DNA of 64,000 bases, from NCBI RefSeq assembly GCF_055900595.2, contig NZ_CM148325.1. One strand, written 5' to 3'. Both the position numbers and the translations under genes were made by a program. The stretch's first letter is position 1. Each line of letters opens with the position of its first letter. The notes beneath the pieces were generated by a model. That model made no database searches, was not told where the DNA came from, and saw only the letters and a program-made list of their open reading frames with translations. Below, in pieces: positions 11,744 to 47,038 of this stretch.

Positions 11744-14130
<2,387 letters not shown>

Positions 14131-41365: not shown

Positions 41366-42559
41366 TCAAATCTGTCGTAACTGCGCCTCAACATACAAAT
41401 AGCCAATCCCCAGCACCTGCTGTGCGCGGCTTAATTGCCCAAAGCCAATTTGCGTCGATTTCACGCTCGGTCCTTCGTCACGGTCGAACGGGTTAAATCC
41501 TGTCTGGCGAATAATGGAATTAAGCCAGTTCTCACCAAAGGCGCAGCTGCGACCATACAGCCAAATCTGATTAATATTGAGGATGTTGAGGAAGTTATAC
41601 AGACTCAAACCAATGGCGTTGGCACTGCGGTCAACCCAGCTGGTGATCCACGGTTCTCCACTCTGCCAGGCAGCGATTAATTGTGCGGTTGTCAATTTTT
41701 CAGGATCAAGCTGAGTATTCACCGGTTGTGATTTTAGCCATACTCGCGCCTGTTTTTTTAATGCGCTTAACGAGGCGACGGTTTCCAGGCAGCCATAATG
41801 TCCGCAGTCGCAGACGACACCATCCGGATTAACGATGGTGTGACCAATCTGTCCGCTACCATACAAACTGCCGCGATAAATTTGCTCGTTAATCACGAAC
41901 GACGAGCCAATACCGTAATCAACGTTGATCACGCAGAAATCCCGTCCTTGCGAATTATTTTGCCATTTCTCCGCCAGCGCCAGCATCACGCAGTCATTAT
42001 CGACCATCACCCGAATGCCCAGCTTCTCTTCCAGCAGATACTTCACCTCAACCGGCGTTGTCCACGGCGCTTGCGGCATGGTTTGCGACACGCCAGTCAC
42101 TGGATCAACCTGACCGTGGATTGCCAGCGCCAGGTTGATAGTACGGTCCGGCCACAGTTTACGATGACGATGCCAGCATTTTTCGATTTCGGACAACAGA
42201 GCCTGCGGTGTCGGTGCATCAATCTGAAAATACTCAAATTCGCCTTTCGGACTTAAACAGGCATTAGCGACCTGACACTCAATGCTGGTGGGCGTCACGT
42301 TCAGGCACAGCGTCCAGTCACCTTCCGGCGCGATCAGCCATGTACCGCTACTGTGCCCGCGCGTCTGGCTTTCATCGTCGATATTCACCACCCGTTTTTC
42401 GCTTTCCAGCTCCTGCAAAATATTACTGACTGCCGGAATCGAAATTTGCGCCAGCCGGGCCAGCGTTGATTTATTGGCGCGCTTTTGCCGGTACAGCAGT
42501 TCCAGAATCACGCATTTGTTATGGTGGCGAATCTGTTGATTATTAATGCAGGCTCTCAT
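41366..42559 (-). CDS. yphH: ROK-family (NagC/Mlc-like) transcriptional regulator YphH
   Basis: 397 aa; N-terminal HTH, ROK sugar-kinase-like fold with Cys/His cluster (CDCGHYGCLE). Confidence 0.85.
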   Translation of the reverse strand: MRACINNQQIRHHNKCVILELLYRQKRANKSTLARLAQISIPAVSNILQELESEKRVVNIDDESQTRGHSSGTWLIAPEGDWTLCLNVTPTSIECQVANACLSPKGEFEYFQIDAPTPQALLSEIEKCWHRHRKLWPDRTINLALAIHGQVDPVTGVSQTMPQAPWTTPVEVKYLLEEKLGIRVMVDNDCVMLALAEKWQNNSQGRDFCVINVDYGIGSSFVINEQIYRGSLYGSGQIGHTIVNPDGVVCDCGHYGCLETVASLSALKKQARVWLKSQPVNTQLDPEKLTTAQLIAAWQSGEPWITSWVDRSANAIGLSLYNFLNILNINQIWLYGRSCAFGENWLNSIIRQTGFNPFDRDEGPSVKSTQIGFGQLSRAQQVLGIGYLYVEAQLRQI

Positions 42560-42676
42560 CTTCACTAAACCTTGTTTAGTTAATTGCGTGATTATTCCGC
42601 GAAAACATTGCCAGATTGTTCAATACACTGCCACAAATCTTTTAATTCAGTATGTCTTGTTAATATTGAGGGCACC

Positions 42677-45600
42677 ATGACTCCAGTAAAAGTGTGGCAA
42701 GAGCGCGTTGAGATCCCGACTTATGAAACAGGTCCGCAGGATATACACCCTATGTTCCTGGAAAATCGCGTTTATCAGGGATCGTCCGGTGCGGTTTATC
42801 CCTACGGCGTGACCGATACGCTGAGCGAGCAGAAAGTCCTGAAATCCTGGCAAGCGGTGTGGCTGGAAAACGACTATATCAAAGTGATGATCCTGCCGGA
42901 GTTGGGCGGTCGGGTGCATCGCGCTTGGGATAAAGTGAAACAGCGCGATTTTGTCTATCACAATGAAGTCATTAAACCGGCGCTGGTGGGGCTGCTGGGG
43001 CCGTGGATCTCTGGCGGGATTGAGTTTAACTGGCCACAACACCATCGCCCAACCACCTTTATGCCCGTCGATTTCACCATCGAAGCCCATGAAGACGGCG
43101 CACAAACTGTGTGGGTTGGCGAAACGGAGCCGATGCACGGTTTACAGGTGATGACCGGTTTCACACTACGCCCTGACAGGGCGGCGCTGGAGATTGCCAG
43201 CCGCGTCTATAACGGCAATGCCACGCCGCGTCATTTCTTGTGGTGGGCCAACCCGGCAGTGAAAGGTGGCGAAGGGCATCAGAGCGTTTTCCCGCCGGAT
43301 GTAACGGCGGTGTTTGATCACGGCAAACGGGCTGTTTCAGCTTTCCCTATCGCTACCGGCACTTACTACAAAGTGGACTACTCCGCCGGAGTGGATATTT
43401 CTCGCTATAAAAATGTGCCAGTGCCGACTTCGTATATGGCCGAAAAATCGCAGTACGATTTTGTTGGCGCATGGTGTCACGATGAAGATGGCGGTTTGCT
43501 ACACGTTGCCAACCACCACATCGCGCCAGGTAAAAAACAGTGGAGCTGGGGACACAGTGAATTCGGCCAGGCGTGGGATAAGAGCCTGACCGACAATAAC
43601 GGCCCGTATATCGAACTGATGACGGGTATTTTTGCCGATAACCAGCCCGATTTTACCTGGCTTGATGCTTACGAAGAGAAGCGTTTCGAGCAGTATTTCC
43701 TGCCTTATCATTCTCTGGGCATGGTGCAAAACGCCTCCCGCGATGCGGTGATTAAACTCCAGCGTAGCGAGCGGGGGATTGAGTGGGGGCTGTATGCCAT
43801 CTCCCCGTTGAAAGGATGCCGCCTGGCGATCCGCGAAATCGGCAAATGCAACGCGTTGCTCGACGATGCCGTGGCTCTGACGCCAGCGACCGCCATTCAG
43901 GGCGTGTTGCATGGTATCAATCCTGACAGACTAACCATTGAACTCTCCGATGCCGATGGCAATATCGTACTGAGTTATCAGGAACATCAGCCACAAGAGT
44001 TGCCGTTGCCGGACGTCGCCAAAGCGCCACTGGCAGCACAAGAGATTACCAGTACAGATGAAGCCTGGTTTATCGGTCAGCATCTGGAGCAATATCATCA
44101 TGCCAGCCGTTCCCCCTTCGATTACTACCTGCGCGGCGTGGCGCTGGACCCGCTGGATTATCGCTGTAACCTGGCGTTGGCGATGCTGGAATATAACCGC
44201 GCCGACTTCCCGCAAACGGTGGCGTATGCCACTCAGGCGCTAAAACGCGCACATGCGTTGAACAAAAACCCGCAGTGCGGACAGGCGAGTTTAATTCGCG
44301 CCAGTGCTTACGAACGTCAGGGGCAATATCAACAAGCCGAAGAGGATTTCTGGCGTGCGGTCTGGAGCGGAAACAGTAAAGCCGGTGGCTATTATGGTCT
44401 GGCACGGCTGGCGGCGCGTAATGGTCACTTCGACGCGGGTCTGGATTTTTGCCAACAAAGTCTTCGCGCCTGCCCAACCAATCAGGAAGTGCTTTGCCTG
44501 CATAACCTGCTGCTGGTGTTAAGTGGTCGTCAGGACAACGCGCGTTTGCAGCGAGAGAAGTTGCTGCGTGATTATCCGCTGAACGCCACTCTGTGGTGGC
44601 TGAACTGGTTCGATGGTTGTAGCGAATCTGCCCTCGTACAGTGGCGAGGTCTGTGTCAGGGACGCGACGTTAACGCTCTGATGACCGCCGGGCAACTGAT
44701 TAACTGGGGCATGCCCGCTCTGGCGGCAGAGATGCTGAACGCACTGGACTGTCAGCGCACGCTACCGCTTTACCTGCAAGCCAGTTTGCTGCCAAAAGCT
44801 GAACGCGGAGAACTGGTCGCAAAAGCTATTGATGTCTTCCCGCAGTTTGTCCGTTTCCCTAATACGCTGGAAGAAGTGGCGGCGCTGGAGAGTATCGAAG
44901 AGTGCTGGTTTGCCCGGCATTTACTGGCCTGTTTCTACTACAACAAACGCAGCTACGGCAAAGCAATTGCCTTATGGCAACGTTGCGTTGAGATGTCGCC
45001 GGAGTTTGCCGACGGATGGCGTGGGCTGGCAATCCATGCGTGGAATAAGCAGCATGATTATGAACTGGCTGCGCGTTATCTTGATAATGCTTATCAACTT
45101 GCGCCGCAGGATGCACGTTTGCTATTCGAACGGGATTTGCTGGATAAGTTAACCGGTGCTGCACCAGAAAAACGTCTGGCGCGTCTGGAAGCTAATCTGG
45201 AAATCGCCCTGAAGCGTGATGACATGACCGCAGAATTGCTCAATTTGTGGCATCTCACTGGTCAGGCCGACAAAGCGGCAGAGATTCTCGCCACGCGTAA
45301 ATTCCATCCGTGGGAAGGCGGAGAAGGGAAAGTCACCAGTCAGTTTATCCTCAACCAGTTGTTACGCGCCTGGCAATACCTTGATGCCAGACAACCGCAG
45401 CAGGCCAGCGAACTGCTTCATGCCGCGCTGCACTATCCGGAGAATTTAAGCGAAGGCCGTTTACCGGGGCAAACTGACAACGACATCTGGTTCTGGCAGG
45501 CGATATGTGCCAAAGCCCAGGGCGATGAAACTGCAGCGACGCGTTGTTTACGTCTGGCGGCGACGGGTGATCGCACCATTAACATCCACAGTTATTACAA

Positions 45601-45958
45601 CGATCAACCGGTTGATTATCTCTTCTGGCAAGGGATGGCGTTGCGATTACTGGGCGAACAACAAACCGCACAGCAACTGTTTAGTGAAATGAAACAGTGG
45701 GCGCAAGAGATGGCGAAAACCAGTATCGAAGCGGATTTCTTTGCCGTCTCGCAGCCTGACTTGTTGTCGCTGTATGGCGATTTACAACAGCAGCATAAAG
45801 AAAAATGCCTGATGGTGGCGATGCTGGCGGCCGCGGGATTAGGCGAGATTGCGCAATACGAATCTGCTCGCGCTGAATTGACGGCGATTAATCCGGCCTG
45901 GCCGAAAGCGGCATTACTCATCACCGTGATGCCTTTTATTTTTAGCTACGTTCACTAA
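42677..45958 (+). CDS. yphG: Large uncharacterised protein YphG (1093 aa), helical-repeat (TPR-like) C-terminal half
   Basis: ORF with SD (GAGGG) upstream of Met 42677; divergent from yphH; K-12-like length. Confidence 0.8.
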   Translation: MTPVKVWQERVEIPTYETGPQDIHPMFLENRVYQGSSGAVYPYGVTDTLSEQKVLKSWQAVWLENDYIKVMILPELGGRVHRAWDKVKQRDFVYHNEVIKPALVGLLGPWISGGIEFNWPQHHRPTTFMPVDFTIEAHEDGAQTVWVGETEPMHGLQVMTGFTLRPDRAALEIASRVYNGNATPRHFLWWANPAVKGGEGHQSVFPPDVTAVFDHGKRAVSAFPIATGTYYKVDYSAGVDISRYKNVPVPTSYMAEKSQYDFVGAWCHDEDGGLLHVANHHIAPGKKQWSWGHSEFGQAWDKSLTDNNGPYIELMTGIFADNQPDFTWLDAYEEKRFEQYFLPYHSLGMVQNASRDAVIKLQRSERGIEWGLYAISPLKGCRLAIREIGKCNALLDDAVALTPATAIQGVLHGINPDRLTIELSDADGNIVLSYQEHQPQELPLPDVAKAPLAAQEITSTDEAWFIGQHLEQYHHASRSPFDYYLRGVALDPLDYRCNLALAMLEYNRADFPQTVAYATQALKRAHALNKNPQCGQASLIRASAYERQGQYQQAEEDFWRAVWSGNSKAGGYYGLARLAARNGHFDAGLDFCQQSLRACPTNQEVLCLHNLLLVLSGRQDNARLQREKLLRDYPLNATLWWLNWFDGCSESALVQWRGLCQGRDVNALMTAGQLINWGMPALAAEMLNALDCQRTLPLYLQASLLPKAERGELVAKAIDVFPQFVRFPNTLEEVAALESIEECWFARHLLACFYYNKRSYGKAIALWQRCVEMSPEFADGWRGLAIHAWNKQHDYELAARYLDNAYQLAPQDARLLFERDLLDKLTGAAPEKRLARLEANLEIALKRDDMTAELLNLWHLTGQADKAAEILATRKFHPWEGGEGKVTSQFILNQLLRAWQYLDARQPQQASELLHAALHYPENLSEGRLPGQTDNDIWFWQAICAKAQGDETAATRCLRLAATGDRTINIHSYYNDQPVDYLFWQGMALRLLGEQQTAQQLFSEMKQWAQEMAKTSIEADFFAVSQPDLLSLYGDLQQQHKEKCLMVAMLAAAGLGEIAQYESARAELTAINPAWPKAALLITVMPFIFSYVH

Positions 45959-45975
45959 ACACTATTAACTGTAAT

Positions 45976-46010
45976 ATTTGAGCGGCACGCGCTGCCGCTC
46001 ACGCTCAAAT
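45976..46010 (+). terminator. Hairpin terminator between yphG and yphF
   Basis: TTTGAGCGGCA-n-TGCCGCTCACGCTCAAA inverted repeat in AT-rich context. Confidence 0.55.
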
Positions 46011-46054
46011 AATTAAAATAAGCCGTTGTAAATAAAAACCCTACAGGAGGCACT

Positions 46055-47038
46055 ATGCCTAAAAAAATGAGAACAACCCGTAATCTATTATTAATGGCTA
46101 CGCTATTAGGTAGCACACTATTTGCCAACGCTGCGGAAAAAGAAATGACCATTGGTGCAATATACCTTGATACCCAGGGATATTACGCTGGAGTGCGCCA
46201 GGGCGTTCAGGATGCGGCAAAAGATTCTTCAGTACAGGTACAGTTAATTGAAACTAACGCCCAGGGCGATATTTCGAAAGAAAGTACCTTTGTTGATACC
46301 CTCGTGGCGCGTAATGTCGATGCCATTATTTTGTCGGCAGTGTCTGAAAATGGCAGTAGCCGCACCGTTCGCCGCGCCAGTGAGGCGGGTATTCCGGTGA
46401 TTTGCTACAACACCTGTATTAATCAAAAGGGTGTCGATAAATATGTCTCGGCATATCTGGTTGGCGATCCGCTGGAATTTGGTAAAAAACTGGGTAACGC
46501 TGCCGCCGATTATTTTATTGCTAACAAAATTGACCAGCCGAAAATTGCTGTCATCAATTGCGAAGCCTTTGAAGTTTGTGTGCAACGACGTAAAGGGTTT
46601 GAAGAAGTATTAAAAGCCCGCGTTCCCGGCGCGAAAATTGTCGCTAATCAGGAAGGGACTGTTTTAGATAAAGCGATTTCTGTTGGTGAAAAACTGATTA
46701 TCTCCACGCCAGATCTCAATGCCATTATGGGGGAATCGGGTGGAGCGACACTCGGCGCGGTAAAAGCGGTACGTAATCAAAATCAGGCTGGAAAAATTGC
46801 CGTTTTCGGTTCGGATATGACCACTGAAATTGCACAGGAACTGGAAAATAACCAGGTGCTGAAAGCGGTAGTGGATATTTCCGGTAAGAAAATGGGCAAT
46901 GCTGTTTTCGCGCAAACATTGAAGGTTATCAATAAACAAGCCGACGGTGAAAAAGTGATTCAGGTGCCAATCGATCTCTATACCAAAACGGAAGACGGTA
47001 AACAGTGGCTGGCAACGCACGTTGATGGTCTGCCCTAA
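46055..47038 (+). CDS. yphF: ABC transporter periplasmic sugar-binding protein (RbsB-like) YphF
   Basis: 327 aa; signal peptide MPKKMRTTRNLLLMATLLGSTLFANA; periplasmic binding protein type 1 fold. Confidence 0.85.
   Translation: MPKKMRTTRNLLLMATLLGSTLFANAAEKEMTIGAIYLDTQGYYAGVRQGVQDAAKDSSVQVQLIETNAQGDISKESTFVDTLVARNVDAIILSAVSENGSSRTVRRASEAGIPVICYNTCINQKGVDKYVSAYLVGDPLEFGKKLGNAAADYFIANKIDQPKIAVINCEAFEVCVQRRKGFEEVLKARVPGAKIVANQEGTVLDKAISVGEKLIISTPDLNAIMGESGGATLGAVKAVRNQNQAGKIAVFGSDMTTEIAQELENNQVLKAVVDISGKKMGNAVFAQTLKVINKQADGEKVIQVPIDLYTKTEDGKQWLATHVDGLP

Follow-up and report, generated by a model that had tools for sequence, protein, structure and literature searches.

Introduction

Regulators of the ROK family bind 23-bp palindromes or quasi-palindromes (PMC3553997; PMC4288165). 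The sites of NagC and Mlc are 23-bp quasi-palindromes whose only invariant positions are TT at -6,-5 and AA at +5,+6, with positions +/-11 also mattering, and the nagE operator of NagC depends on cooperative looping to the nagB operator (PMC4288165). In Bacillus and Paenibacillus, XylR recognizes GTTT-N7-AAAC within ~25 bp, and its operators are located between the promoter and the regulated genes, which include the regulator's own gene (PMC9104551). The regulons of the Thermotoga ROK regulators XylR, ChiR, IolR, BglR, ManR, TreR and GluR were inferred by comparative genomics, and their motifs were validated by EMSA and their effectors identified (PMC3553997). E. coli encodes a third, uncharacterised ROK repressor beside NagC and Mlc, namely YphH (PMC4288165). 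In the literature that we searched, neither a YphH motif or regulon nor the function of yphB to yphG or of DUF5107 is described; the kind of element considered here, the operator of a local sugar-responsive ROK repressor, is itself well known.

The yph locus studied here is part of a 64-kb stretch of E. coli DNA (the window, within which all positions are numbered). The ROK-family gene yphH (41366..42559, minus strand), which encodes a 397-aa protein with an N-terminal winged helix-turn-helix (HTH), is divergent from yphG (42677..45958, plus strand; DUF5107 plus TPR repeats). Further along the plus strand lies yphF (46055..47038), which encodes a periplasmic sugar-binding protein and is the first of the yphFED ABC transporter genes. 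An inverted repeat, hereafter the H-site, is found directly upstream of yphH. The best explanation of the data as a whole, and one that we regard as likely, is that this repeat forms the core of a 23-bp autoregulatory operator of YphH, and that a second copy of the motif, the F-site, and yphFED belong to the same regulon.

Results

Sequence and position of the repeat

The repeat, ACTAAACCTTGTTTAGT at positions 42564..42580, reads ACTAAAC-ctt-GTTTAGT; as the initial annotation had described it, its 7-bp arms pair without a mismatch around a 3-bp spacer. Two of the distances given there are each one nucleotide too long. The start codon of yphH appears on the plus strand as CAT at 42557-42559 (ATG at 42559), leaving 4 nt (42560-42563) rather than 5 bp between it and the repeat, and the divergent region measures 117 bp rather than 118 bp, with the ATG of yphG at 42677. 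The yphG-yphH intergenic region of strain K-12 (2682746-2682862) is also 117 bp long and identical in sequence. The 321 bp around the repeat match 5424 of 5426 complete E. coli genomes, where yphG and yphH are annotated, and the 60 nt surrounding the site are unchanged in 5014 of 5422. The yphH reading frame extends upstream to a GTG within the repeat (42563..42565), which would yield a 399-aa protein; the conserved, annotated ATG at 42559, with AAGG or GGAG upstream, is a better start than this GTG at 42565.

A repeat search extends the dyad to 10-nt arms (42561-42570 and 42574-42583, 90% complementary) that flank the 3-nt spacer, such that the full element is a 23-bp quasi-palindrome (42561..42583; minus strand TTAACTAAACAAGGTTTAGTGAA) with T/A-type flanks at +/-10 and +/-11. 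The repeat had initially been considered shorter than typical NagC/Mlc operators, an objection that falls away when the conserved flanks are included, as the resulting 23 bp are the same size (PMC4288165; PMC3553997).

Conservation of the half-sites in yphH orthologues

Homologues of YphH are common in Enterobacterales, and a scan of one genome per species yielded 80 yphH loci (1.0 Mb in total). A divergent yphG homologue is present in 75 of them, at a nearly constant spacing of 110-124 bp. We aligned these 75 orthologous intergenic regions, which range from Escherichia to Aeromonas and whose YphH proteins are 57-97% identical. Across the 75 regions, the element is conserved in its position and in its half-sites, a result that answers the question of conservation across Enterobacteriaceae and extends it to Aeromonas, with the proviso that the sites are phylogenetically related and their counts overstate the number of independent events. 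Mean column identity over the 75 loci is 0.93 and 0.87 in the two arms and 0.70 in the spacer, as compared to 0.53-0.58 in most other intergenic DNA of the alignment. Conservation of the arms persists at YphH identities as low as 57%, Aeromonas included.

The orthologous sites define the consensus ASTWAAC-N3-GTTWAST, which the 17-bp core of the H-site (42564..42580) matches with 0 mismatches; with its flanks, the consensus is TWnASTWAAC-nnn-GTTWASTnWA and fits copies at yphH as well as those elsewhere. Positions A(-8), T(-6) and AA(-4,-3) and their mirror positions are invariant in the family, and position +/-5 is W. Within the 17-bp core, positions 2/16 can be either S (G or C) and positions 4/14 either W (A or T), with each arm varying independently, and the commonest orthologous forms are AGTTAAG-gga-GTTAAGT and AGTTAAC-gga-GTTTAGT. 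Perfect arm symmetry, with 7 of 7 positions paired, occurs only in Escherichia and Phytobacter; the nearest outgroups read AGTAAAC-aag-GTTTAGT, and by this comparison the perfect symmetry of the E. coli site corresponds to one G-to-C change at the degenerate position 2. Judging from the alignment, the conserved feature is the sequence of the half-sites and not their complementarity. The independent S/W variation in the arms, the free spacer and the conserved flanks follow the logic of a protein-DNA site.

Recurrence of the motif near yphH and sugar transport genes

The yphH-proximal sites provided a position weight matrix (PWM) of the arms, in which the spacer was neutralised, and all 80 loci (1.0 Mb) were searched with it. 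The search returned 18 further matches at scores of at least 16, as compared to 1.2 in shuffled sequence, and 42 at scores of at least 13, as compared to 5.6. To avoid circularity, the matrix was rebuilt from non-Escherichia sites only and applied to both strands of the window. The repeat at 42564 is the top match (21.8), followed by a site at 45954 (20.7), and shuffled windows contain 0.11 matches at scores of at least 16; these figures describe the specificity of the motif in the 64-kb window and 1 Mb of related loci.

The second match in the window is the F-site (45954..45970; ACTAAACACTATTAACT, in K-12 ACTAAACCCTATTAACT), which scores 20.6 in E. coli with the first matrix, derived from the yphH-proximal sites. 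It overlaps the TAA stop codon of yphG (45956-45958) and is positioned 85-101 nt upstream of the yphF ATG (46055). A copy is present at the same yphG-yphF junction in approximately 14 loci of the E. coli-like group. In Pantoea, Erwinia and Izhakiella, whose yphH orthologues lack a neighbouring yphG, the upstream site scores 24.5 and is located ~35-90 nt from the start codon of the yphH orthologue. Additional copies immediately follow the yphH stop codon in Pantoea dispersa, where they precede a Sugar_tr MFS gene, and in Buttiauxella, where they precede genes for a LacY-type symporter and a GH35 protein. The motif therefore resides in the control regions of yphH itself and of adjacent sugar transport genes, is conserved there in orthologues, and the sole gene common to all of its contexts is the yphH orthologue. 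In the copies away from the yphH start, the T/A-type flanks are also kept, with -11 (T), -10 (W), +10 (A) and +11 (A) conserved besides the arms, and the spacer carries 0.1-0.5 bit of information, i.e. it is unconstrained.

The gene neighbourhoods of the 80 loci are themselves varied. The Pantoea/Erwinia orthologue (loci L076, 2805..5778, and L063, 1898..5819) adjoins genes for an MFS transporter and a GMC oxidoreductase, not yphG, and in L063 a gene for a metallo-beta-lactamase-fold protein is an extra neighbour, an arrangement suggesting that the modules for sugar oxidation or uptake that the regulator controls vary from genus to genus. The yphG-yphH pairs fall into two families, one E. coli-like (L002-L020), with YphG at least 73% identical to the query, and a second (L021-L070) in which identity is ~55%. 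The genes downstream encode an ABC transporter in the former and an aldose epimerase and an MFS protein in the latter. Klebsiella, Citrobacter and Raoultella species are represented in both, which suggests that the two families are paralogous loci sharing one operator type.

YphH as the candidate binding protein

The literature searched reports no binding, expression or transcription start site for yphH; which protein binds, and whether it represses or activates, are inferred here. Most likely, the protein that binds the 23-bp site is YphH. It contains a ROK domain (PF00480, 4e-32), preceded by MarR/HTH_24-like matches at residues 16-54, and the zinc motif CDCGHYGCLE is visible in its translation. 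Residues 9-334 are homologous to Mlc (1Z6R), with which YphH aligns along its whole length, and the protein is also homologous to the ROK repressors Lmo0178 and XylR. It scores 111 and 109 bits against the NCBIfam equivalogs of NagC and Mlc, far under their cut-offs of 650 and 530, respectively. Thus, a ROK protein with an N-terminal winged HTH is encoded beside the site. No variation is seen within the family in the HTH residues S40, P42, A43, S45, I47 and L48, or in R67 and G68 of the linker, and this invariance fits that of a nearly invariant operator. One reading of the repeat in the initial annotation was an operator, with the ROK regulator itself named as a possible binder. Conservation in 75 regions and recurrence in the yph neighbourhood sustain the operator part of that proposal, and the assignment to YphH is probable.

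Alternatively, the motif could be a genuine transcription factor site that serves a global or neighbouring regulator other than YphH. The third match in the window, at 14104 with a score of 16.1, lies upstream of nadB and illustrates this possibility, as it shows that similar TAAAC and GTTTA words occur in a NadR-box-like sequence. The surrounding segment (14094..14120; ACCAAACCGTGTTTAGTAAATTAAACA) is positioned 6-32 nt upstream of the nadB ATG (14088, minus strand) and contains TGTTTA-N6-TAAACA, which resembles the NadR box. We rejected the 14104 match as a YphH site, as it overlaps this sequence and the TAAAC and GTTTA words are probably shared. In a NadR-type box the half-sites are in reverse order, TGTTTA-N6-TAAACA, an arrangement that the H-site does not match. 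More generally, the motif travels with yphH orthologues into neighbourhoods as different as yphG with an ABC transporter, an MFS gene with a GMC oxidoreductase gene, and LacY with GH35, which speaks against another regulator, and the 23-bp dyad has the geometry of ROK operators (PMC3553997, PMC4288165). We therefore consider recognition by a different regulator unlikely.

Promoter-like and other elements of the intergenic region

The intergenic region contains several conserved blocks in addition to the H-site. Its most conserved stretch, with a mean identity of 0.97 across the 75 loci, is a 9-bp block (TCACGCAAT; 42583..42591, minus strand) that, read towards yphH, immediately precedes the site. 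The repeated motif does not include this block, which is missing beside the copies that are not at yphH; it may represent the discriminator and transcription start region of the yphH promoter. Pantoea has a related sequence, TCACAGAAGTC, before its site. Inspection by eye of this block for a CRP site, a PurR-like site or a second, overlapping yph half-site gave no convincing match. There is a candidate -10 hexamer for yphH (AATAAT; 42591..42596, minus strand), which appears as AAtg.T in relatives (identity 0.82), and a candidate -10 hexamer for yphG (TACACT; 42624..42629, plus strand) appears as TAnACT (identity 0.83). These two conserved hexamers suggest back-to-back promoters for yphH and yphG. 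A scan of 42400-42850 and 45850-46100 detected no consensus sigma-70 promoter; for this reason the promoters are placed by the conserved -10-like hexamers, and where the operator lies with respect to the promoter is a guess. Cappable-seq supplements have no entry for the yphH locus.

Near yphG, a conserved block (the G-block, 42646..42665; TTCAGTATGTCTTGTTAATA) abuts the yphG Shine-Dalgarno sequence and forms a 75% direct repeat with the H-site at a distance of 85 bp. The centre-to-centre distance between the H-site and this yphG-proximal block is 84-85 bp, or ~8 helical turns, in 73 of the 75 loci. In the second yphG-yphH family (L021-L072), a recognisable site with scores of 8.1-13.7 occupies the position of the G-block. 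The E. coli G-block was evaluated as a second operator, and its scores of -0.4 and -1.1, i.e. ~0, led us to class it as a degenerate copy; that the block does not score as a site counts against the model with regard to yphG in E. coli.

Other elements in or near these regions were noted. On the minus strand, 42599..42613 (TGGCAATGTTTTCGC) is a sigma-54-like GG-N10-GC in the yphH direction, which some close relatives carry as TGGCAC-TGTTT-TCGC and which does not extend beyond the E. coli-like clade. The part of the window that was examined showed no gene for an enhancer-binding protein, and the element is probably due to chance. The scan of 42400-42850 found no intrinsic terminator, the stem of the H-site being AT-rich with no T-run after it. 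Over both scanned regions (42400-42850 and 45850-46100), the only terminator-like hairpin is one inside the 3' end of yphG (45910..45933; GGCATTAC...GTGATGCC, then TTTTATTTTT), ~25 nt before the stop codon. Directly past the F-site, the yphG-yphF intergenic region contains a stem-loop (45980..46000; GAGCGGCA-cgcgc-TGCCGCTC), whose stem, GAGCGGC/GCCGCTC, is invariant and whose loop is variable in seven E. coli-like loci, with no T-run after it; this structure may serve to stabilise or process the mRNA, or may partially terminate transcription between yphG and yphF.

The centre of the H-site overlaps what is probably the Shine-Dalgarno sequence of yphH, AAGG (42570..42573, minus strand), which comprises the spacer and the first base of an arm and is separated from the ATG by 10 nt. 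A purine-rich centre (AAGG, GGAG or GAGG), 8-11 nt from the ATG, occurs only in the yphH-proximal copies, and it probably represents the yphH Shine-Dalgarno sequence, at operator positions that the protein would not read. These features raise a second alternative, namely that the site is simply the conserved core promoter and ribosome-binding site of yphH, composed of a -10-like TAnAGT and the Shine-Dalgarno sequence, in which the symmetry is incidental and plays no operator role. The left flank and arm (TAnAGT) do resemble a -10 hexamer, the centre is a Shine-Dalgarno sequence, and in most loci the site directly precedes the start codon. However, a promoter of this kind leaves unexplained both the right arm, GTTWAGT, which is conserved at 0.87 downstream of the Shine-Dalgarno sequence, and the dyad symmetry. 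Moreover, the copies of the 17-23 bp pattern that precede transporter genes or lie at the yphG stop codon have no Shine-Dalgarno-like centre, and a transcript beginning 7 nt past TAnAGT would presumably lack the Shine-Dalgarno sequence altogether. A promoter and ribosome-binding site devoid of operator function is thus quite unlikely.

RNA pairing potential of the repeat

The repeat could also act at the RNA level, as a hairpin in the yphH 5'-UTR that holds the AAGG Shine-Dalgarno sequence in or at its loop, ends its stem 4 nt from the AUG, and tunes translation or mRNA stability, a possibility that the initial annotation had raised with regard to yphH translation. In E. coli, the 17-mer forms a perfect 7-bp stem of -3.7 kcal/mol (z = -5.1 versus shuffles), and the hairpin persists when folded in 56- and 81-nt contexts, but those contexts are no more stable than their shuffles (z = -1.1 and -0.5) and the stem is weak. 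To evaluate pairing in relatives, we considered 44 distinct orthologous site variants. In 41 of them the fold is no stronger than -0.4 kcal/mol. Positions 2 and 16 fail to pair (G/G) in 40 variants, positions 4 and 14 in 17, and positions 7 and 11 in 15. Overall pairing amounts to 76.0%, as compared to 74.7% in column shuffles, and is reached by 71 of 500 shuffles. Thus, no stable stem that sequesters the Shine-Dalgarno sequence is kept by covariation in the orthologues, and because 41 of the 44 variants lack the RNA hairpin, a 5'-UTR hairpin is unsupported. The same motif is also found where it could not be a 5'-UTR element, both on the stop codon of yphG and, in Pantoea, ~35 nt before the start. 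A search of 42300-46200 against Rfam gave no match above threshold, its only hit being a sub-threshold one to a eukaryotic scaRNA (E = 0.23), away from the repeat. Taken together, these data make an RNA hairpin in place of an operator very unlikely.

A combination of the two has also to be weighed for Escherichia, as the spacer is the yphH Shine-Dalgarno sequence and the G-to-C change at position 2 completes the complementarity of the arms. In such a two-level element, the DNA would be a YphH operator and the transcript a hairpin with the Shine-Dalgarno sequence in its loop beside the AUG, a lineage-specific layer that tunes translation of the repressor having been added to an ancestral operator; we regard this elaboration as improbable. 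Separately, a 12-nt inverted repeat (AATCACGCATTT at 42506..42517 and AATTGCGTGATT at 42582..42593, 92% complementary) brackets the yphH translation start, with its AATCACGCATTT arm located in yphH codons 14-18. This pairing was discarded as a conserved structure, as it does not extend beyond Escherichia and its closest relatives.

As a bare palindrome, the H-site is unremarkable. When loops of 0-10 are allowed, perfect 7-bp inverted repeats number 82 in the window, as compared to 51 +/- 10 in shuffles, and 8 of the 82 have a loop of 3. One or more such repeats arise in 9.6% of the dinucleotide shuffles made from the 117-bp region, and in 1.3% there is one whose loop is exactly 3. The weight of the finding derives from conservation and recurrence, not from symmetry, and a functionless chance palindrome, common as such repeats are, is scarcely credible, being incompatible with conservation across Enterobacterales and Aeromonas and with 18 as opposed to 1.2 expected matches at scores of at least 16.

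Discussion

A model for regulation by YphH

The inverted repeat upstream of yphH is a real element, and its interpretation as an operator appears well supported by the comparative evidence. In the model that we favour, autoregulation by YphH, a dimer of the protein would bind TWnASTWAAC-nnn-GTTWASTnWA via its N-terminal winged HTH. The H-site would then be positioned between the presumed yphH promoter and the ATG, with the unconstrained 3-bp spacer accommodating the yphH Shine-Dalgarno sequence, and bound YphH would block initiation or early elongation of its own transcript, i.e. it would act by autorepression rather than activation. If the -10 hexamers are right, yphH transcription would start near 42584-42586 and the 23-bp site would span approximately +2 to +24 of the yphH transcript, which is a classic position for the operator of an autorepressor. 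A sugar inducer would release the repressor.

The F-site at the yphG stop codon would place the yphFED transporter genes, and with them the following yphC and yphB, in the same regulon. Its location, on a stop codon 85-101 nt upstream of yphF, is unusual for a simple repressor site. The F-site may serve a promoter of yphF or may be a roadblock; long-range cooperation of the H-site with the F-site, via a 3.4-kb loop or a roadblock, is a possibility. At the other end of the intergenic region, the degenerate G-block beside the yphG Shine-Dalgarno sequence, 84-85 bp from the H-site, could be a weak auxiliary site that needs cooperativity, as described for NagC.

An operator at yph would not surprise a specialist, and its value is that the regulon of this orphan E. 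coli regulator becomes directly accessible to experiment. The two strong E. coli copies of the candidate operator and the family-wide consensus provide concrete probes for studies of YphH, and the minimal predicted regulon comprises yphH, yphFED together with the genes that follow, and probably yphG. The candidate operator is also a handle for finding the inducing sugar of the orphan yph pathway, whose neighbouring genes encode an ABC sugar transporter, a Zn-dependent dehydrogenase, an aldose 1-epimerase and a DUF5107 protein. Finally, it would add a third, sequence-distinct operator type with which to compare how the HTH-plus-linker modules of ROK proteins read 23-bp sites.

Comparison with known ROK operators

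The predicted yph operator most closely recalls those of NagC and Mlc, as it is a 23-bp quasi-palindrome with few T/A-type invariants, located in a divergent region near sugar-utilisation genes. However, the motifs differ, since the yph family has ASTWAAC-N3-GTTWAST with invariant T(-6) and A(+6) but W at +/-5, and the E. coli site presents TA/TA, not TT/AA, at +/-6,5. The presumed reading head differs as well, as the YphH linker contains RG (R67, G68), whereas NagC and Mlc have GR-containing motifs (PMC4288165). The likeness of the H-site/G-block pair to the looped nagE-nagB region is an analogy only. With the XylR sites, the yph site shares GTTT and AAAC words in a palindromic operator of a sugar-responsive ROK repressor, the regulator being predicted in the yph case, whereas the words are in opposite order and closer together (TAAAC-N3-GTTTA). 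Among the systems compared, the Thermotoga regulons share with yph a 23-bp palindrome before the regulator and adjacent sugar transporter or catabolic genes that is conserved in orthologues; the yph motif differs from theirs in its sequence and in being known from comparative evidence alone.
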